The notes under the pieces were generated by a model, which saw only the letters and a program-made list of their open reading frames with translations, was not told the origin of the DNA and made no database searches. A program made the translations under genes and the position numbers. Shown piece by piece: positions 8,381 to 51,692 of a DNA stretch of 64,000 nucleotides (within the stretch, counting starts at the first letter, position 1; every line of letters starts with the position of its first letter). The stretch comes from Paenibacillus cymbidii (GTDB lineage: Bacteria; Bacillota; Bacilli; Paenibacillales; NBRC-103111): assembly GCF_004764705.1 (NCBI RefSeq), contig NZ_SHLX01000014.1:90953-154952 (forward strand). Reading direction: 5' to 3'.

Positions 8381-8572
8381 AAATAGCCCATGAAAAATGG
8401 CCTATTTGCTCCTTATCGGGCGGCTCGACGGAAATAGCCAGTGAAAACACTGGTTATTTGTCCTGGATCGCCTTCAAATCGGCATTTCAATCGAAATAAC
8501 CAGTGATTTCGCTGGTTATTTTGAAGGGGGTGCCTGTTTTTGGCGAAATAGGCAAGAAAATAGGGCCTAATT
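8381..8572. repeat. Copy 1 of a ~195-bp four-hairpin intergenic repeat element (in inverted orientation relative to copies 3 and 4)
   Basis: Four palindromic units of type AAATAGCCAGTGAAAACACTGGTTATTT (9-10-bp stems, 8-10-nt loops), separated by 24-, 34- and 24-nt spacers. Stem sequences differ between units but stay complementary (GCCCAT…ATGGGC, GCCAG…CTGGC, ACCAG…CTGGT). Confidence 0.8.
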
Positions 8573-10670: not shown

Positions 10671-10770
10671 ATAGGCCATGTTTTCTTGGCTATTTCGTTA
10701 AAAATGGGAGGTCGCAACGAAATAGCCAGTGAAATCGCTGGCTATTACGCGTTAAAGTCCGATTTTGGGG
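10671..10770. repeat. Copy 2 (partial, 2 hairpins) of the four-hairpin repeat element
   Basis: ATAGGCCATGTTTTCTTGGCTATTT, then a 24-nt spacer, then AAATAGCCAGTGAAATCGCTGGCTATTA, then the conserved spacer motif CCGATTTTGGGGTGGTCAG. It lies between the 3' ends of araC and the MFS gene. Confidence 0.7.
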
Positions 10771-19549: not shown

Positions 19550-19859
19550 GGCGGCAGATTATAGAGGCGGGTCCGCGAAGATTGATCGCGGGCTTTTTCT
19601 TTTGAAGGAGGCTGGGAGGAGGGGGCGATGTATCTGGCTCGCGCCGCTTTTGATCGCTATCCCCTTCGCTCAGTATGCTACAGGCGGGCCTTACCCCCGA
19701 TTACTAGAGGCTGGCTTTTTGCTCGGCTGAGGTCTTCGCTTCATTTATCAGAGGTGGATTGTTTATCCCTGTTGATGCATCTGAATAAAGCCCACCTTTT
19801 TGCGGACGGACAAAACTAGAAATCTTATATAGCTATACCAATATTGCTTTCGACAAGTG

Positions 19860-20750
19860 TCAACTTGCCGGTCGGGTCAAATTGCGGTAGGTAATGGTTC
19901 TGCTGGAGCCGCATAGCCGAGCGATCGACTCGAACGGGTTCGACTGGCGCAGATGGCTGCCGATCATGAAACAAAATTCATTCAAATAAGCCTGCAAATG
20001 GCGGCGGCCCAGTCCGCGAAAGGTCAAGTTGATCCAGGAGACGGCCATTTTGTGGTAGGGAAGGGCGCGCTTCTCGGTTCTGTGTGTGTATTTGCCAACG
20101 GTACAAAAAAAGGTGGCATCCGGTTGTACATGCCGTTCCTTGAACCAGGTCACGCTTGTTCTGTCGATTCCGGTTGGGGAGAGCCATTCCTTCGGAACGA
20201 TTTTGATTTTCACGGCATGAGCGTGTTCGAATTCGGGTGAGGTGGTGGCGACGAAAACAGGCACTTCCCGCGGATGCAAAAATAATCCCGATAAATCCGG
20301 ACGGGCGTAAGAAGCTTTATCGACATGAACGAAACCGCAAAGCTGGGTTTCGGCATCTTGCAAACCGATGGCATATCGAATTTTGTGCAGCATCAACCAT
20401 GCCGTCTTGTAGGTGACCTTAATTGCCTTGGATAAAAACATGGCGCTCGTTCCAGGCGAAGGCCTTGTCATGTAGTGCAAGGCGACGAACCATTTGCAAA
20501 GCGGGGTGCGGCTTCCCTCCATCACGGTGCCGCTGGTCGGCGATGCCTGGTAGTGGCAGGAGGTGCACTGAAACAACGGCATTCGCCGGGAGGCAATCCG
20601 GTAGCAGCTGGTGTGGCCGCATCGCGGACAAAGGAATCCGTTCGGCCATTTGCAACAGATCAGATGTTCGATACAGCTCTCTTCCGTGCCAAATTCCTCG
20701 TTCATTTGCTCCAGCGATTGTGGCATTTGAAACATAACAACACCCCCCAC
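19860..20750 (-). mobile_element. IS1595-family insertion sequence; the transposase ORF has an N-terminal zinc ribbon and a DDE domain
   Basis: 296-aa ORF with a CxxC…CxxC zinc ribbon (FLCPRCGHTSCYRIASRRMPLFQCTSCHY) followed by a DDE_Tnp_IS1595-like region. It is inserted in a 1.7-kb intergenic gap. The terminal inverted repeats could not be delimited confidently. Confidence 0.7.
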
Positions 20751-20871
20751 TCAGAATGGTTATGGTTTTATTATAACAAACGTATGTTCTTATTTTCAAG
20801 TGTAATAGGGTGAATTTTCCAAAATAAATGTGCTTTTGGTCGCAACTGGTGAGACGAGGGGAAGGAGAAAT

Positions 20872-21060
20872 GAAGGCTGTGAAACAGGCAACGGAATGGG
20901 AGAGTGAAGCAGGTAACGGAATGGGGAGTGGGGAATGGAGCAGGTAACGGAATGAGCAGTAAGGCAGGCGACGGAATGGGGAGTAAGGCAGGCAACGGAA
21001 TGGGAGAGTGAGGCAGGCAGCGGAACGGGGAGTGAGGCAGGAGACGGAGTGGGTAGTGGG
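20872..21060. repeat. 24-bp minisatellite, ~8 tandem copies of (A/G)AGGCAGG(C/T)AACGGAATGGGGAGT
   Basis: The direct tandem repeats are visible in the sequence. They lie immediately upstream of the IS1595 transposase start. Only repeat-derived low-complexity ORFs cover them. Confidence 0.8.
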
Positions 21061-21177
21061 GGTCGTCATTTCAAAGGGGGGAACAAGCATGCATTCACCT
21101 GATCGAAGGGGATAGTGGCTGAAAAGAGGCTGAGGGCGACAAGTCCCTTGCATGATCGCATAAATATTCCATAAAAA

Positions 21178-21222
21178 AGGAGGCCGCAGCCAGCGCAGCC
21201 TCGCTTTTTTCTCACAGCGGAA
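21178..21222. terminator. Bidirectional terminator downstream of ridA
   Basis: AAAAAAGGAGGCCGCAGCCAGCGCAGCCTCGCTTTTTTCT. A GC stem is flanked by A- and T-runs. Confidence 0.65.
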
Positions 21223-21237
21223 AATTTAAGAAACGGT

Positions 21238-21702
21238 TCAGTCGCGAATTTCCACAATGATTTCAATTTCGACAGGAGTATGGAACGGCAATTCGTTGGT
21301 GCCGATCGCGGAACGGGCGTGTTTGCCGGCTTCGCCGAACACGTCGACAAGCAGATTCGAAGCGCCGTTAATGACGAGCGGCTGATTGGCAAAGCCGGGG
21401 GCGCTGTTGACCAGGCCGAGCATTTTGACGATGCCGACGACACGGTCCAGATCGCCCAGGTACCCTTTCAGCACGGCGATACAGTTGATCATCGTTTGGC
21501 GAGCGGCTGCCTGCCCTTGTTCAATGGTCAATTCGGCGCCAAGCTTGCCTTCGAACATCAATTCGCCGTCGATCCGGCAATCCTGCCCGGACAAATAAAG
21601 CAGGTTGCCCGTACGTTTGCACGGAATGTAAGTAAACCGCGGCTCCGGGGACGGCGGCAGGGTGATGCCAAGCTCTTGCAGACGTTGTTCGATTTTCGAC
21701 AT
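21238..21702 (-). CDS. ridA: RidA/YjgF-family reactive-enamine deaminase
   Basis: YjgF/chorismate-mutase-like fold (…ANQPLVINGASNLLVDVFGEAGKHARSAIGTNELPFHTPVEIEIIVEI). The start is ATG after GAGGAGGAG. Confidence 0.8.
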   Translation of the reverse strand: MSKIEQRLQELGITLPPSPEPRFTYIPCKRTGNLLYLSGQDCRIDGELMFEGKLGAELTIEQGQAAARQTMINCIAVLKGYLGDLDRVVGIVKMLGLVNSAPGFANQPLVINGASNLLVDVFGEAGKHARSAIGTNELPFHTPVEIEIIVEIRD

Positions 21703-37660: not shown

Positions 37661-37853
37661 GAAATAAGCCATGTTTCATTGGCTATTTGTCTCAAAATGG
37701 CGGGGTGCAGCAAAATAACCAGTGAAAACGCTGGCTATTTCGCTGAAATGTTCGATTCCGGGGCGATTTGGTCAGAATAGCCAGTGTTTTTGCTGGCTAT
37801 TTTTATCGCGGTGGGGGAAAACGTGCGAATAGGCCATTTTTTATGGGCTATTT
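37661..37853. repeat. Copy 3 of the four-hairpin repeat element
   Basis: Four units: AAATAAGCCATGTTTCATTGGCTATTT, AAAATAACCAGTGAAAACGCTGGCTATTT, AATAGCCAGTGTTTTTGCTGGCTATTT and AATAGGCCATTTTTTATGGGCTATTT. Spacers are 24, 35 and 25 nt. Confidence 0.8.
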
Positions 37854-47718: not shown

Positions 47719-49554
47719 GTGAGCTTGTTGAAGGAGAACGTCTCGTTCCGCCATCCGGGCGGCCTATTCCGCCGCATCAGCATGCCGCGGAAATGGCTGC
47801 TCGCCTATGTGCTGCTGATCGTCGTCCCGGCGTCGGTCCTGTTTTATTTTTACTATCAGCGATCTTCTTCCGTCCTGAAGCAGGAAGTGACGCGATCGAT
47901 GCAGCAAACGCTGCAACAGGTGGCGCTCAACCTGGGCAACCGGATGGAGCGGGTGGAGGACATCAGCAATTCGGCTATGATGAACTACAACCTGCAGTCC
48001 TATTTGGGCGACGCCAACGGCGACGACTCGATCGGCAAGCAACTGGAAATCGTCAAAGATTTTCGCCAACTGGTCGATTCGATCCAAACGAACGCGGACG
48101 TGTTCAAATTCCGCTTGTTCGTCGATCGGTCGCGTTTGTACGCGGAAGAGCGAATCAATTTTTTTTCGCTGGACAGCCTGGAGGAGCGCCCATGGTATAA
48201 CGACATCATCGAGGGGAACGGCCAAATCGTATGGACTAGCGTCTACAAGGAAACGTTCGTCGACCGCTTCGACGAGCCGGCGCCGTTCATCATCTCCTGC
48301 GCGCGCATGCTGCGCGATCCGTTGGTGTACGATCGGGTTGCCGGCGTCATGATGATCGACGTCAAAGTGAAAACGTTGGCGGATTTTCTTGATAAGCTGA
48401 CGATGACCTGGCAGAGCGCGGTTTATTTGGTCGACGGCAGAGGTACGGTCGTGTACCATCCGGATGAAGCGCGGATCGGCACGACCGTGGATGAACGTAC
48501 CTCCAGCGCCCTCGCAACCGGCAAATCGGTGCAGAAGCTGCTCGGCGGCGCCAAACAAGCCGATTACGTGCTGTCCGCCGCTTTGCCGCTGGCGGGGTTG
48601 CGGGTCGTCGCCGAAATTCCGGCCGCGGAAATCGCCAGCCGCACGCAGAACCAGACGCAGTATACGGGCATCGCCACGTTGCTGGCCATTTTTGCGCTGT
48701 TTCTCGTGCTTGTGTTCGTTTTGCTCGCTTTCATCATCCGGGCCATGAACCGCCGCGTGCAGCAGGTGATCGGCGTGATCCGGCGCGAAGGCATCGAAGG
48801 GTTGACCGATCTGCCGTCCGCCGGCTCCGGCGACTTCGGCATGCTGGAGAGCAGCGTCGACAATCTGGTGCACCGCGTCAGGTCGCTCGTCGAGCAAACG
48901 TACCGGGCGCGCGTGACGGAACGCGAAGCCCAGCTTCGTGCGCTGCAGGCGCAGATCAACCCGCACTTTCTGTACAATACGCTCGACACGATCAATTGGA
49001 TTGCGATCGGTCGCGGCGCCACCGACATCAGCCAGATGATCGACGCACTGGCCAAATATTTCCGCCTGAGCCTGAACGCCGGACGCGACGAAGTCAGCGT
49101 GGAGGACGAGTTGATGCTGGCCAACGTGTATCTGGAGCTGCAGATGACGCGGTTTCCCGGTTCGTTCGAGCTGCAGATCGACGCCGGGGAGGGCGTAGGC
49201 GCGTATGCGATGCCGAAGCTGACGCTGCAGCCAATCGTTGAAAATGCGCTGATGCACGGCATCCGCAAGAAGAAGTCGCGCACGGGCGTCATCCGCATCT
49301 CCGCCGCGATTCGGGGGGAGGAGTTGCTGCTGACCGTATCCGACGACGGCATCGGCATGGATGCGGAGTTGGTCCGGCGGCTGCTTGCCGAGCCGCAGGC
49401 AAAATCCGGCACCGGGCAATCGGGCAGCTCGTACGGTTTGTACAACGTCAACGAACGCATCAAGCTGTATGCGGGCGACAGGTACGGCCTGACCATCGAG
49501 TCCGAGCCGGGCGTCGGCACCACGGTCAGCGTGCGGCTGCAGGCCAGACGCTAG
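47719..49554 (+). CDS. Sensor histidine kinase (YesM-like; two TM helices flanking an extracellular sensor, then HAMP, His-kinase and HATPase domains)
   Basis: …INPHFLYNTLDTINW… (H-box of YesM/LytS type) and …ENALMHGI…GIGM… (N and G boxes). The start is uncertain: GTG 47719, TTG 47725 or ATG 47785. Confidence 0.85.
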   Translation: MSLLKENVSFRHPGGLFRRISMPRKWLLAYVLLIVVPASVLFYFYYQRSSSVLKQEVTRSMQQTLQQVALNLGNRMERVEDISNSAMMNYNLQSYLGDANGDDSIGKQLEIVKDFRQLVDSIQTNADVFKFRLFVDRSRLYAEERINFFSLDSLEERPWYNDIIEGNGQIVWTSVYKETFVDRFDEPAPFIISCARMLRDPLVYDRVAGVMMIDVKVKTLADFLDKLTMTWQSAVYLVDGRGTVVYHPDEARIGTTVDERTSSALATGKSVQKLLGGAKQADYVLSAALPLAGLRVVAEIPAAEIASRTQNQTQYTGIATLLAIFALFLVLVFVLLAFIIRAMNRRVQQVIGVIRREGIEGLTDLPSAGSGDFGMLESSVDNLVHRVRSLVEQTYRARVTEREAQLRALQAQINPHFLYNTLDTINWIAIGRGATDISQMIDALAKYFRLSLNAGRDEVSVEDELMLANVYLELQMTRFPGSFELQIDAGEGVGAYAMPKLTLQPIVENALMHGIRKKKSRTGVIRISAAIRGEELLLTVSDDGIGMDAELVRRLLAEPQAKSGTGQSGSSYGLYNVNERIKLYAGDRYGLTIESEPGVGTTVSVRLQARR

Positions 49555-49589
49555 CGGACAAACCAATCATTCTCCTTTCCCAATGCACC

Positions 49590-50110
49590 TGCCCCCTTAT
49601 GAGCCTGCTTCTTTTGTCAGGTATCCCCTTGACTCAGACCTGAACGGAATATCTTCTTTGGACAGCCCCTTCTGCTCGCTATCCCCTTCGCTCCGTTGGA
49701 ACGGGGTTGTCCTCTCCGGAACTTCCTTTCTGCCCGCTATCCCCTTCGCTCAGACTGGAACCGGGCTGTCCTTTCCGGAACTTCCTTTCTGCCTGCTATC
49801 CCCTTGACTCAACCCCACGCATCAATAACTTTTATCCCATTTCAAGAAATGTACCCCCTACGATGCAGTGACACCATTCAGGTACCCCCCTTCAAACTTG
49901 ATACATCCAAACGTTAACCTGAGCCAAGGGGATAACCAGCAAACACAGCCTTCCATTGACCACCGCCGGCTCGCTCCCTCCTCTTCCCATACACTCACTG
50001 CCGAACCTGCCTGAGCCAATGGGATAACCAACAGTCGCGAACTGCTACTGAGTATACGCGCGCTCGCCGCCGCGCCGGCCTGAGTCAATGGGATAACAAG
50101 CAAATACGTA
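49590..50110. repeat. Non-coding region holding convergent arrays of a 16-18-bp motif (G[CG]TATCCCCTT[CG][AG]CTCAG). There are four direct copies on the + strand at a 57-58-bp period, then three inverted copies.
   Basis: + copies at 49622, 49679, 49737 and 49795 (GGTATCCCCTTGACTCAG / GCTATCCCCTTCGCTCAG). - copies at 49919, 50009 and 50079 (CTGAGCCAAGGGGATAACC…). A further single copy is at 19656-19673. No credible ORF covers the region. Confidence 0.75.
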
Positions 50111-50380
50111 CTTGAGACAGCCACTTTAGCATGGCTTGGCATGTCGGCAAACGAAGGCTGATTTCAGCCTTACAGCAGCATTTTGGTGAGTAGCGGACGA
50201 CATATGACCGATTTCAGCCTTACTGCGGCGCTTCGGGAAGCGTCGGACGTCGAACGTGTTTTTAGGCGGCGGTTAAGTGTGTTTTGCGGTTAAGCTACGA
50301 TCTGCCCCGCAGAGGCACCAGTTTGTCGCCATATTTAGCCATGTTAGCGGCGGATGCCGGGTCAATTCGACGTGACGCTG

Positions 50381-50573
50381 GAATAAGCCATGTTTTATTG
50401 GCTATTTCGCCAAAAAGAAGGACTGCCAACGAAATAGCCAGCGATTTCACTGGCTATTTGGCCGCGGAGCCTGATTTTGGCGCAAGTTGACCCAAATAAC
50501 CAGCGTTTTCACTGGTTATTTCCGGCGGACCGCCGAAAAATGGGCGAATAAGCCATTTTTCATGGCCTATTTC
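50381..50573. repeat. Copy 4 of the four-hairpin repeat element
   Basis: Four units: AATAAGCCATGTTTTATTGGCTATTT, AAATAGCCAGCGATTTCACTGGCTATTT, AAATAACCAGCGTTTTCACTGGTTATTT and AATAAGCCATTTTTCATGGCCTATTT. Spacers are 24, 34 and 25 nt. Confidence 0.8.
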
Positions 50574-50726
50574 TGCGGCGTGGTGCGTGGGGGGCGTGTT
50601 TGTTGAAGAATACGACCAGAAATTAAAGGTTTGCCTTCTACAAGCCCGGACGGCGGCGCCGTTATAATGGCACTATCACGCCGAACCTCCACACCAGTAA
50701 CCAACAACCGAAAGGAGCGCGACAAC

Positions 50727-51692
50727 ATGAGTTTGGCTGCCGAAGAGCCGAACCGACCGGCCGCGCCGGCACGAGCTCGGGCGGAGCGGAAACGGCGCTG
50801 GAAGCTGTTCCGCAACAATTACGAGATGTACGTGCTGCTCCTGCCCGGGCTCGCTTTCCTGCTGCTGTTCAAGTACACCCCGATGTACGGGGTCGTCATC
50901 GCTTTTCAGGACTTCAACATATTCGACGGCATCCGGGGCAGCGCATGGGTCGGCTCGGATCAATTCCAGAAGCTGTTCCATTCCGAGGAATTCATGCAGG
51001 TGTTCCGCAACACGCTCATCATCAGCTTTTACAAAATCGTGCTGCTGTTCCCGGTTCCGATCGTACTGGCCCTGTTTCTGAACGAAGTGGCAAGCATGGC
51101 GTTCAAACGCACGGTGCAAACGGTCGTGTATCTCCCGCATTTTCTGTCCTGGGTCATTATTGCGGGGCTGTTCGTCAACATCCTGTCGCCCTCGGGCGGG
51201 CTCGTCAACCAACTCGTCGTCGCGCTCGGCGGCAAACCGGTATCGTTCCTGATCGACAACGACTGGTTTCGCAGCGTGCTGGTGTTTACGGCGGGCTGGA
51301 AGGAAGCCGGCTGGAACGCGATCATCTTCATCGCCGCCATCGCCGGCATCGATCAGGACCAGTACGAAGCGGCCCGCGTCGACGGCGCCGGGCGAATCAA
51401 GATGATGCTCCACATTACGCTGCCGGGAATCGCGCCGACGATTGTGCTGATGTTCATTTTGCGGATCGGCAATTTGCTGGAGGCCGGTACGGAGCAAATT
51501 TTGACGATGTACAATCCGGTCGTCTACGAAACCGGGGACATCATCGGCACTTACGTCTACCGCGTCGGTCTCGGCAAAATGGACTACAGCTTCAGCACGG
51601 CGGTCGGCTTGTTCAACTCCGTGGTCGGCTTCCTGCTCATCATGTCGGGCAATCTGGTCAGCAAAAAATGGCTGCGTCGCAGCATCTGGTAA
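50727..51692 (+). CDS. Sugar ABC transporter permease (LplB-like, polysaccharide ABC permease)
   Basis: Six-TM MalF-type permease with an EAA loop (…DQYEAARVDGAGRIKMMLHITLP…). The start is ATG after AAAGGAG. The track ORF begins 32 codons earlier. Confidence 0.85.
   Translation: MSLAAEEPNRPAAPARARAERKRRWKLFRNNYEMYVLLLPGLAFLLLFKYTPMYGVVIAFQDFNIFDGIRGSAWVGSDQFQKLFHSEEFMQVFRNTLIISFYKIVLLFPVPIVLALFLNEVASMAFKRTVQTVVYLPHFLSWVIIAGLFVNILSPSGGLVNQLVVALGGKPVSFLIDNDWFRSVLVFTAGWKEAGWNAIIFIAAIAGIDQDQYEAARVDGAGRIKMMLHITLPGIAPTIVLMFILRIGNLLEAGTEQILTMYNPVVYETGDIIGTYVYRVGLGKMDYSFSTAVGLFNSVVGFLLIMSGNLVSKKWLRRSIW

Follow-up and report, generated by a model that had tools for sequence, protein, structure and literature searches.

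A convergent repeat array in Paenibacillus cymbidii as a probable gene-less derivative of an IS1595-lineage unit

The window analyzed here, a 64,000-nucleotide stretch of the Paenibacillus cymbidii genome, contains a gene-free region of 1076 bp at 49555-50630, longer than the ~800 bp given for it in an earlier, sequence-only reading. A Pfam scan of eight neighboring genes identified a YesN-like response regulator, a YesM-like histidine kinase and ABC permeases, and found no rep, par, cas or recombinase gene; the ABC-transporter operon downstream starts at 50631. The flanking genes both lie on the + strand, and GC skew does not switch at the array. Within 49622-50095, the motif TATCCCCTTSRCTCAG occurs in four direct and three inverted copies. 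With the limits of the element placed 12 nt outside the outermost cores, at 49610 and 50107, its length so defined is 498 bp, and its parts are as follows.

49610..50107, no strand, whole gene-less inverted-array element: left arm of four direct sites, 106-bp center, right arm of three inverted sites
49610..49638, + strand, left-arm site 1: core 49622-49637 TATCCCCTTGACTCAG, upstream half TCTTTTGTCAGG, weight-matrix score 32.3 bits
49668..49696, + strand, left-arm site 2: core 49680-49695 TATCCCCTTCGCTCCG, weight-matrix score 28.4 bits
49670..49805, + strand, tandem duplication of the 58/59-bp unit (site plus spacer), source of the inner left-arm copies, from Tandem Repeats Finder
49726..49754, + strand, left-arm site 3: core 49738-49753 TATCCCCTTCGCTCAG, weight-matrix score 34.9 bits
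49785..49813, + strand, left-arm site 4: core 49797-49812 TATCCCCTTGACTCAA, weight-matrix score 23.4 bits
49813..49918, no strand, central segment between the arms: resembles no part of the gene-bearing unit described below
49918..49946, - strand, right-arm site 1: core 49919-49934 TATCCCCTTGGCTCAG (- strand), weight-matrix score 31.6 bits
50010..50038, - strand, right-arm site 2: core 50011-50026 TATCCCATTGGCTCAG (- strand), weight-matrix score 21.9 bits
50079..50107, - strand, right-arm site 3: core 50080-50095 TATCCCATTGACTCAG (- strand), weight-matrix score 26.8 bits

All seven copies lie where the sequence-only reading had placed them, with + cores starting at 49622, 49680, 49738 and 49797 and - cores at 49919, 50011 and 50080. 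Its spacings need slight adjustment: the direct copies, given as 57-58 bp apart, are separated start-to-start by 58, 58 and 59 bp, and the inverted copies, given as 90 and 70 bp apart, by 92 and 69 bp. More substantially, the repeated unit is wider than the 16 bp originally described. The conserved site spans ~29 bp and reads roughly C-TTTT-N5-6-C-R-N-TATCCCCTTCGCTCAG(G), with information upstream of the core at positions -11, -9, -8, -7, -3 and -2, a half-site that was absent from the search pattern. The core alone is enriched: a search allowing up to two mismatches returns 9 matches in the window, where shuffles predict 0.03 and none of 100 reaches 9. The array spacers are homologous to one another, the left-arm tandem has a period of 59 bp over 2.3 copies with 89% matches, and the outermost copies of the array pair as an inverted repeat of 35 nt with 74% complementarity.

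The earlier judgement that the region holds no plausible ORF is confirmed: no ORF of the array region matches Pfam, and a period of 58/59 bp cannot code because it is not a multiple of 3. An Rfam scan of 48.5-51.5 kb returned nothing relevant, no promoter-like site was found in 49400-50750, including between the arms, and a terminator scan of the array detected weak terminator-like hairpins only. The RNA fold of the array is more stable than that of shuffles (z = -4.3), as expected from its inverted arms, and nothing further is implied. Two nearby features are distinct from the array. The four-hairpin element is a separate dispersed repeat, and the GATTTCAGCC pair is unique in the window and is not part of the array element; the direct-repeat pair of GATTTCAGCCTTACWGCRGC reported previously is real, at 50160 and 50210, with no other copy in the window.

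The 18-mer GCTATCCCCTTCGCTCAG is common to left-arm site 3 and a site at 19656-19673 that had been regarded as isolated. That site has an inverted partner at 21099-21114, and the pair brackets an IS1595-like gene.

19646..19674, + strand, site 3′ of the IS1595-like gene: core 19658-19673, 38.7 bits
19860..20750, - strand, IS1595-like gene: 296 aa from a GTG start, 291 aa from the ATG at 20735
20770..20799, - strand, promoter-like site of the gene: TTGAAA, 18 nt, TATAAT, TG extension; 11/12 consensus positions, by consensus match alone
21098..21126, - strand, site 5′ of the IS1595-like gene: core 21099-21114 (- strand), 35.0 bits

The order of the unit is therefore repeat, promoter-like site, gene, repeat. 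The link between this cognate protein, encoded at 19860-20750 of the same window, and the array was missed by the sequence-only reading. A blastn comparison of 49555-50640 with 19551-21250 matched the sites alone. When the window is compared with two related loci, L120 and L121, 28 of the 29 positions of the 3′ site are conserved, and the stretch separating this site from the stop codon is unalignable. The 5′ site is also conserved in L120, at 1496. No target-site duplication was found at the gene unit, where the best flank match is 5/8. A 29-nt tandem repeat at 20870-21060 was considered as a degenerate copy of the site and rejected, its alignment score being no better than 802 of 1000 shuffles.

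The encoded protein, for which an exact look-up returned no record, comprises a zinc ribbon, a helix-turn-helix region and a degenerate RNase-H-like domain. The zinc ribbon profile PF12760 matches it with an E-value of 3e-9. The catalytic-domain profile is far less well represented: PF12762 matches over profile positions 128-151 only (E 0.17), whereas in a canonical Acidobacterial protein it matches over positions 2-152 (E 2e-28). NF033547, whose cut-off is 75 bits, gives 76.5 bits over two partial stretches. The protein does carry the IS1595-family C-terminal ‘YL(D/N)EF’ helix. A fold search with its AlphaFold2 model (pLDDT 88.8) gave weak PDB matches (E >= 0.007) to Mos1, ISCth4 and retroviral integrases, which would fit an RNase-H-like fold and are not decisive.

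What the motif is becomes clear outside the Paenibacillaceae. It corresponds to positions 7-22 of the inverted repeat in Acidobacterial IS1595 elements of ~1.02 kb each (L003, L048, L090 and L119) and in short MITEs, and in the three elements with both ends present (L003, L090 and L119) it begins 6 nt inside each end. The transposases of the Acidobacterial elements align with the DDE_Tnp_IS1595 profile over its full length (E 1e-25 to 2e-28). The MITEs of this lineage (L028, L062, L067 and L107) are 111-307 bp long and occur in Acidobacteria and one actinobacterial Ilumatobacteraceae genome. An 8-bp target duplication is perfect in 6 of these 7 non-Paenibacillaceae elements (three insertion sequences and four MITEs), and the seventh matches at 7/8. 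Bona fide members of the IS1595 family and their MITEs therefore have the 16-mer as the core of their terminal inverted repeats, and the array, which had been called unassignable to any known class, can be placed. The fallback offered at the time, a composite repeat element, was nearer the truth than the iteron, partition and nucleoid functions preferred to it.

The same sites recur in Paenibacillus and Cohnella, in an arrangement that is strictly ordered. Across 120 sequences, all 43 junctions within 3 kb run ‘+ then -’ and none runs ‘- then +’, the geometry expected of transposon ends. Wherever the arms are separated by 0.9-2 kb, a homologue of the 296-aa window protein is encoded between them. 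Gene-less clusters, which range from hairpin-like pairs up to 13-copy arrays, are commoner than gene-bearing ones among Paenibacillaceae loci. Further instances of the architecture include L074 (8+/6-), L113 (13+/1-), L012 (1+/7-), L093 (1+/6-) and L006 (5+/4-). Array periods in other genomes are 37, 39, 44, 47-48 and 58 bp, and the phasing of about 5.5 helical turns previously noted at the window array is consequently not a general property. The variable half-site is lineage-specific and is the same in both arms, and in the gene-less and gene-bearing elements of one genome. In asymmetric gene-bearing units, the multi-copy arm lies 5′ of the gene in 7/7 cases.

Gene-less arrays are also fixed at orthologous sites in other genera. 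Between L009 and L116, an orthologous gene-less pair, there is 1 difference in the sites against 8 in the 19-nt spacer. In two Cohnella species with orthologous dnaJ-prmA arrays, the sites are retained but the spacers can no longer be aligned, and each array stops a short way upstream of a conserved promoter-like sequence of prmA. It is also possible that conservation of sites at orthologous loci reflects homogenization among copies instead of functional selection. For the window array, no orthologous empty or filled site was recovered; the closest histidine kinase after that of P. cymbidii itself is 62% identical, and a metagenome scan for the kinase with generic peptide patterns yielded paralogues only (24-41%).

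The protein family appears to have decayed catalytically. Among 121 members, the column of the first catalytic Asp (D1) holds N in 51, T in 31, H in 12, G in 6 and D in 5, with others in the remainder; the window clade still has Asp at this position. The D2 motif ‘HTDGWQGY’ is missing in 121/121, the Glu is present in 118/121, and the zinc-ribbon Cys residues are invariant or nearly so in the 121 relatives. The Paenibacillaceae proteins are also shorter by ~24 residues in the segment from strand 4 to the Glu helix. Judged from alignment and model, these proteins look catalytically disabled, with two of the three catalytic carboxylates lost and the DNA-binding N-terminus kept. Syntenic orthologues exist in two independent lineages (window/L120/L121 and L122/L123), over which dN/dS is 0.14-0.18 (0.16-0.18 for the window gene), near the values of neighboring host genes, and both protein domains are constrained (omega 0.10-0.25). 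The IS1595-like gene is conserved in place like a host gene. Each of the marks of a domesticated transposase, namely catalytic-residue loss, orthology at a fixed locus and purifying selection, is present. Almost every protein of the family is on record from no more than 1 or 2 contigs. Some mobility or duplication continues in the family, as one metagenome-assembled genome has two gene-bearing units, L039 and L056, that share 95% identity and occupy different loci. With a score that barely clears the cut-off, automatic annotation calls these genes ‘IS1595 family transposase’, a name that is probably misleading as to their activity.

Based on the terminal-repeat core, the transposon-end geometry and the cognate gene, we propose, with a probability of about three in four, that the element at 49610-50107 derives from an IS1595-lineage unit, is gene-less and MITE-like, and has arms made of tandemly amplified terminal inverted repeats. 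Such an element could have arisen by an internal deletion that removed the gene, followed by tandem duplication of the 58/59-bp site-plus-spacer unit. At the array itself, the best 8-bp flank match is 6/8 and no defined terminus was found, so that its insertion by transposition would be read from its relatives. We expect the IS1595-like protein to bind each ~29-bp site through its N-terminal zinc ribbon and helix-turn-helix. The earlier suggestion of sites in both orientations for one DNA-binding protein therefore survives in general form, as a prediction from the terminal-repeat core; its iteron-like part does not. The element is probably now immobile or rarely mobile, given the loss of D1 and D2 in the family, the synteny under purifying selection and the lack of a target duplication in any of 21 Paenibacillaceae elements, none of which reaches a 7/8 flank match. 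Because of this probable immobility, the arrays would best be read as retained clusters of predicted high-affinity binding sites for a transposase-derived DNA-binding protein, which may still pair the convergent arms as a transpososome would.

Whether such clusters have gained a host role is a separate question, and we regard a co-opted regulatory or architectural array as possible, at well below even odds. Here a domesticated protein would act through the clusters to loop or bridge DNA or to control promoters, at this locus that of the ABC-transporter operon from 50631. The proposal sharpens the iteron-like idea of the sequence-only reading. The purifying selection on both protein domains together with synteny across species, the footprinting of sites between diverging spacers and the specificity of the half-site to each lineage are all consistent with this proposal. 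So is the position of the Cohnella array just upstream of the prmA promoter-like sequence, and the placement of the multi-site arm always on the promoter side of the protein's own gene is what autoregulation predicts. However, neither period nor copy number is conserved, repeat homogenization could mimic constraint, and 49400-50750 contains no promoter-like site. The genes next to gene-less arrays are, moreover, unrelated between loci, including elsewhere prmA/dnaJ, spoIIR, hrpB, a GH9 cellulase and a hybrid kinase, which also leaves unsupported the specific tie to the adjacent polysaccharide locus that had been suggested.

A rival account, in which the array is an ordinary active MITE mobilized in trans by a competent IS1595 transposase elsewhere in the genome, with incidental extra repeats and no host role, seems to us unlikely. 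It would explain why the motif is the inverted-repeat core of relatives and MITEs that transpose with 8-bp duplications, why gene-less clusters outnumber gene-bearing ones among Paenibacillaceae loci, and how two 95% identical units came to lie at different loci in one metagenome-assembled genome. But it sits poorly with the 0/21 Paenibacillaceae elements with a flank match of at least 7/8, with homologues that have no D2 motif and in which D1 is mostly replaced, and with gene-less arrays that persist at orthologous sites across species. The recording of family proteins on 1 or 2 contigs in nearly all cases is also unlike a proliferating insertion sequence.

Regularly spaced repeats could in principle mark a decayed pseudogene or a CRISPR-like array, and inverted repeats flanking 106-422 bp recall an invertible, phase-variable promoter, yet all three are very improbable: the period and the ORFs without Pfam matches argue against a former gene; mutually homologous spacers, repeats in both orientations, no Rfam match and no cas gene among the eight neighbors argue against CRISPR; and no recombinase among these genes and no promoter-like site between the arms argue against an inverton. 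Least credible of all are an origin, terminus or partition element, such as the iterons or centromere-like site of an integrated replicon, as well as the partition or nucleoid-organizing role first favored; direct and inverted repeats of protein-binding size do occupy a long non-coding region, but the neighbors are YesN-like, YesM-like and ABC-permease genes and include neither rep nor par, the flanking genes are both on the + strand with no switch of GC skew, the same motif is a transposon end elsewhere with the matching ‘+ then -’ order, the period ranges from 37 to 59 bp, and viral contigs have single matches only, at chance level. Two specific candidates of this kind were rejected, a replication terminus with Ter-like convergent sites on the grounds of GC skew and co-oriented flanking genes, and a phage origin on the grounds that IMG/VR gives only 18 singleton matches to the motif.

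The reading of the array as a gene-less derivative of an IS1595-lineage unit can be set beside known systems. With IS1595 insertion sequences (ISXO2-like; PF12760 plus PF12762; NF033547) the window unit shares the zinc ribbon, the helix-turn-helix region and terminal inverted repeats flanking the gene at 19658(+) and 21099(-). It differs in that a complete catalytic domain, with the conserved D, D and E/N/H, is not found in the window protein and no 8-bp duplication is detectable; further, Paenibacillaceae ends carry up to 13 tandem sites instead of one, and the genes are syntenic and evolve in a host-like manner. Like bacterial MITEs, the array is short (498 bp), non-coding, intergenic and bounded by the repeats of a transposase-encoding relative. 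Unlike them, it has arms that are themselves arrays, of 4 and 3 copies, where a MITE has a single repeat, has no target duplication that could be found and has a cognate protein that is apparently disabled.

Several direct sites per end, inverted between ends and unequal in number, are a feature of the Tn7 TnsB sites, of Mu L1-L3/R1-R3 and of the IS21 repeats. Ends of this type have 2-4 sites each at fixed positions in elements that are actively mobile, whereas the copy number of the present arrays is variable (1-13), through tandem duplication of site plus spacer. We know of no multi-site ends of this kind in the IS1595 lineage. Primate SETMAR, with the Hsmar1/MADE1 repeats, is a domesticated transposase that still binds dispersed relic repeats; here too a transposase-derived protein keeps its DNA-binding domain, as predicted, and former ends persist dispersed, although SETMAR is a eukaryotic fusion protein.

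A further bacterial parallel is RAYT/REPIN, the system of the REP-associated tyrosine transposases, in which a low-copy, vertically inherited transposase-derived gene is flanked by inverted cognate repeats that are also dispersed intergenically as pairs and clusters (PMC2817692). RAYTs belong to the HUH/Y1 enzymes of the IS200/IS605 family, have kept their catalytic residues intact and act on hairpin REPs (PMC2817692). The window system likewise has a low-copy, vertically inherited gene flanked by its own dispersed repeat, but it encodes a DDE (RNase-H-like) protein of IS1595 type whose active site is degenerate, and its ~29-bp sites are not palindromic. We consider the window system to be analogous to RAYT/REPIN in organization, and not a member of it. 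A literature search for a domesticated bacterial IS1595 relative or for such Paenibacillus repeats found nothing relevant. The sequence-only reading had allowed that the motif might prove to be part of a widespread, already catalogued repeat family; widespread in Paenibacillaceae it is, and a catalogued array-forming variant was not found.

Importantly, the puzzling non-coding array can be understood as amplified IS1595-lineage ends, and no new class of iteron is needed. The comparison also brings to light a Paenibacillaceae clade that combines a DNA-binding domain and a constrained, DDE-degenerate core with fixed sites and conserved arrays of its own end sequence. We tentatively suggest, as a conjecture we hold to be doubtful, that more than 600 vertically inherited, DDE-disabled IS1595-derived proteins form a co-opted family whose ends have been amplified into selected convergent arrays between genes, a counterpart of SETMAR and RAYT in the Paenibacillaceae. 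The arrays would then serve transpososome-like pairing of arms, in looping or insulation, or promoter control, and that at 49.6-50.1 kb would be one node of a network. To our knowledge, few cases of DDE-transposase domestication have been documented in bacteria. If it is borne out, the present case would be a tractable one, with its 296-aa protein and defined 29-bp site, in which to ask what host role a dead transposase and its relic ends might play.

The array at 49610-50107 lies in a gene-free interval and consists of four direct copies of a 16-bp core followed by three inverted ones, as the sequence-only reading had described. The small ORFs of this interval have no Pfam match, in keeping with the same reading's view that no ORF there is plausible. 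The features concerned are:

49554 to 50631: gene-free interval, from the stop of a YesM-like histidine kinase gene to the start of an ABC permease gene
49622, 49680, 49738 and 49797 (+): left arm of the array, core TATCCCCTTSRCTCAG, spacings 58, 58 and 59 bp
49919, 50011 and 50080 (-): right arm of the array, core TATCCCCTTSRCTCAG, spacings 92 and 69 bp
19658 (+) and 21099 (-): the other two motif matches, bracketing the next feature
19860-20750 (-): 296-aa ORF with an IS1595 zinc-ribbon domain

With up to two mismatches allowed, the window contains nine motif matches where 0.03 are expected, and these nine sites, each a conserved unit of ~29 bp that includes the core, are the only sequences in the window to exceed 12 bits with a weight matrix. 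Tandem Repeats Finder detects a 59-bp unit in the array. The copy near 19658 (+), earlier taken to be isolated, has a partner at 21099 (-) that had been overlooked, and the sites are the sole sequence shared between the array and the gene-bearing unit that this pair delimits. Within the spacer of the 58/59-bp unit, a short GC hairpin is followed by a T-rich run (CCGGGCTGTCCTTTCCGG AACTTCCTTT, 49761-49778), and both recur in the preceding unit (~49702-49720); the hairpin, located downstream of the kinase gene, was flagged as terminator-like on the + strand by a scan.

Two other repeats lie nearby. The four-hairpin element by the array is a dispersed repeat in its own right, built of 25-26 nt hairpin units (AATARSCM...KSYTATT), with copies at 50382-50571, 37663-37852, 8382-8520 and 10721-10746. 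It comprises 12 hairpins in four places (24 matches over both strands versus 0.06 expected); two four-hairpin copies and one three-hairpin copy can be aligned over ~200 bp. We considered whether it belongs to the IS1595-type sites and found it unrelated. A 40-nt unit beginning GATTTCAGCCTTAC is present as two direct copies, 50 bp apart and 75% identical (50160-50249); the GATTTCAGCCTTAC motif has no further copy in the window and falls outside both neighbouring repeat families.

A scan for the 16-mer with one genome per species returned at least 119 loci, and Cohnella, Paenibacillus and other Paenibacillaceae make up nearly half of the loci among the matches listed. At four Acidobacterial loci (L003, L048, L090 and L119), + and - copies lie ~1 kb apart with a transposase gene between them, its reading frame split into two pieces in L119; both intact proteins that were scanned carry a full DDE_Tnp_IS1595 domain (Pfam; L048, E = 2e-28; L003, E = 1e-25). 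The hallmark of IS1595-family transposition is an 8-bp target duplication. Among seven elements tested from outside the Paenibacillaceae, namely three Acidobacterial insertion sequences and four MITEs of 111-307 bp, this duplication is perfect in six and matches at 7/8 positions in the seventh. Each element end is separated from the start of the motif by 6 nt (by 7 nt at one end in two MITEs). Based on this position, the IS1595 transposases and the 8-bp duplications, we identify the 16-mer as the core that is conserved in the terminal inverted repeat of an IS1595 lineage. The element with the 7/8 match is that of L003, whose otherwise canonical transposase (2021-2968, -) has Gly in place of the first catalytic Asp (VGET versus VDET) and may be an inactivated individual copy.

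Neighbouring motif copies no more than 3 kb apart form 49 '++', 39 '--' and 43 '+-' junctions and no '-+' junction (120 sequences, among the matches listed); thus each cluster is delimited by a left arm on one side and, on the other, a right arm in inverted orientation. Every pair of arms 0.9-2 kb apart, among the matches listed, encloses a homologue of the window protein. At their smallest, gene-less clusters are two sites 29-47 bp apart (L076, L014, L009/L116); at their largest they are long arrays (L074, 8+/6-; L113, 13+/1-; L012, 1+/7-; L093, 1+/6-; L006, 5+/4-). Because array periods differ (37, 39, 44, 47-48 or 58 bp), the helical phasing read from the window array is not conserved. Seven gene-bearing units have unequal arms, and in every one of them the multi-copy arm lies 5' of the gene, on the promoter side; many gene-less arrays are likewise asymmetric, with many copies facing one, which is what derivatives formed by internal deletion would be expected to show. 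The weight matrix is also informative outside the search pattern, at -11, -9, -8, -7, -3 and -2; the upstream half-site is lineage-specific, common to both arms of one element and to the gene-less and gene-bearing elements of one genome (L117 and L093 of C. ginsengisoli; three C. panacarvi loci). We interpret the array at 49610-50107 as a gene-less derivative of an IS1595-lineage unit, its ends probably amplified by tandem duplication of the 58/59-bp site-plus-spacer unit.

In the window's gene-bearing unit, the stretch from the 5' site to the IS1595-like gene's promoter includes ~7 tandem repeats of 28-29 nt (CTCCCCATTCCGTTRCCTGCCTCA, - strand; 20870-21060). This tract is longer in a 95%-identical relative (L120, 1540-1800), and a test of its relatedness to the site was negative. 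At the equivalent place, the gene-bearing units L039 and L056 have another simple tandem repeat, rich in TGCAC.

The family of the window protein has more than 600 members in Paenibacillus, Cohnella and Ammoniphilus, most of them found on one or two contigs each. We aligned 121 members with canonical Acidobacterial transposases and inspected the catalytic carboxylates of DDE enzymes (D1, D2 and E). The D1 column holds N in 51, T in 31, H in 12, G in 6 and D in 5 of the 121, with Asp confined to the window's own clade; the D2 motif HTDGWQGY is absent from all 121, and the Glu of YL(D/N)EF is retained in 118. Pfam and NCBIfam matches are limited to the helix-turn-helix region and C-terminal helix of the window protein, which scores 76.5 bits with NF033547 (cut-off 75) versus 189 bits for a canonical protein. 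Its AlphaFold2 model (pLDDT 88.8) keeps the strand-strand-strand-helix-strand-helix-helix core, and the stretch from strand 4 to the Glu helix appears ~24 residues shorter than in canonical proteins. PDB fold matches of the model are weak, the best being DDE transposases and integrases. The protein collection holds other P. cymbidii proteins and no record of the exact product of 19860-20735 (-); the gene may be uncalled, called from another start or marked as a pseudogene in public annotation.

Orthologues with 89% and 82% identity occupy the same place in two other genomes, with a RidA/YjgF-like gene on one side and DUF1128 and Impact_N genes on the other. The flanking sites are kept at both loci, and dN/dS is 0.16-0.18. 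P. apiarius and Paenibacillus sp. OSY-SE form another, independent pair, whose members have their upstream genes in common; here dN/dS is 0.14, the same value as for the host genes nearby. Constraint acts on the N-terminal and the C-terminal half of the protein alike (omega 0.10-0.25).

The sites are similarly retained. On the 3' side of the gene, the 29-nt site is identical at 28/29 positions in the window, L120 and L121, and the DNA between stop codon and site is unalignable and varies in length (~200-530 bp). The orthologous gene-less pair L009/L116 differs at one position across its two sites and at eight in the 19-nt spacer. In the heat-shock operon of both C. luojiensis and C. phaseoli (DnaJ 90% and PrmA 77% identical), the dnaJ-prmA intergenic region holds a gene-less array (L041, 3625-4731; L006, 5108-6496) in which the sites are kept, including the lineage-specific half, while spacers are unalignable and copy numbers differ. 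Both arrays stop just upstream of a conserved promoter-like TTGCAT...TATAAT, itself upstream of prmA. A small ORF-like segment conserved between the two species adjoins them.

The Paenibacillaceae family looks catalytically disabled and host-maintained. For this reason we prefer to read the arrays as retained clusters of binding sites for a transposase-derived protein rather than as a MITE that is actively jumping. It is most probably the N-terminal part (zinc ribbon and helix-turn-helix) of the 19860-20750 protein, or of a genomic paralogue, that binds the sites. Mobilisation of the arrays in trans by an intact relative is, we think, unlikely: none of 21 Paenibacillaceae elements, both window elements included, has flanks matching at 7/8 positions or more. 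Complete immobility is argued against by two gene-bearing units (L039, 5534-7455; L056, 6179-8000), 95% identical on different contigs of one Paenibacillaceae metagenome-assembled genome with unrelated left flanks, which shows recent duplication or mobility in a family without D1 and D2. The iteron and partition roles suggested earlier found no support, nor did a terminus, CRISPR, pseudogene or phage origin, and we found no specific link to the adjacent polysaccharide locus.

The retained clusters invite comparison with known systems. By sequence the window element is assigned to IS1595, and it differs from an autonomous IS1595 element in two defining respects, the intact DDE domain and the 8-bp target duplication, both missing here. 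It resembles RAYT/REPIN systems in pairing a vertically inherited, transposase-derived gene with its own dispersed flanking repeat, Tn7 and Mu in its multi-site ends, and SETMAR in its relic repeats, and is a member of none of these. In the literature that we searched, no IS1595 derivative of this kind is described from bacteria. This apparently dead transposase and its arrays may have a host function.
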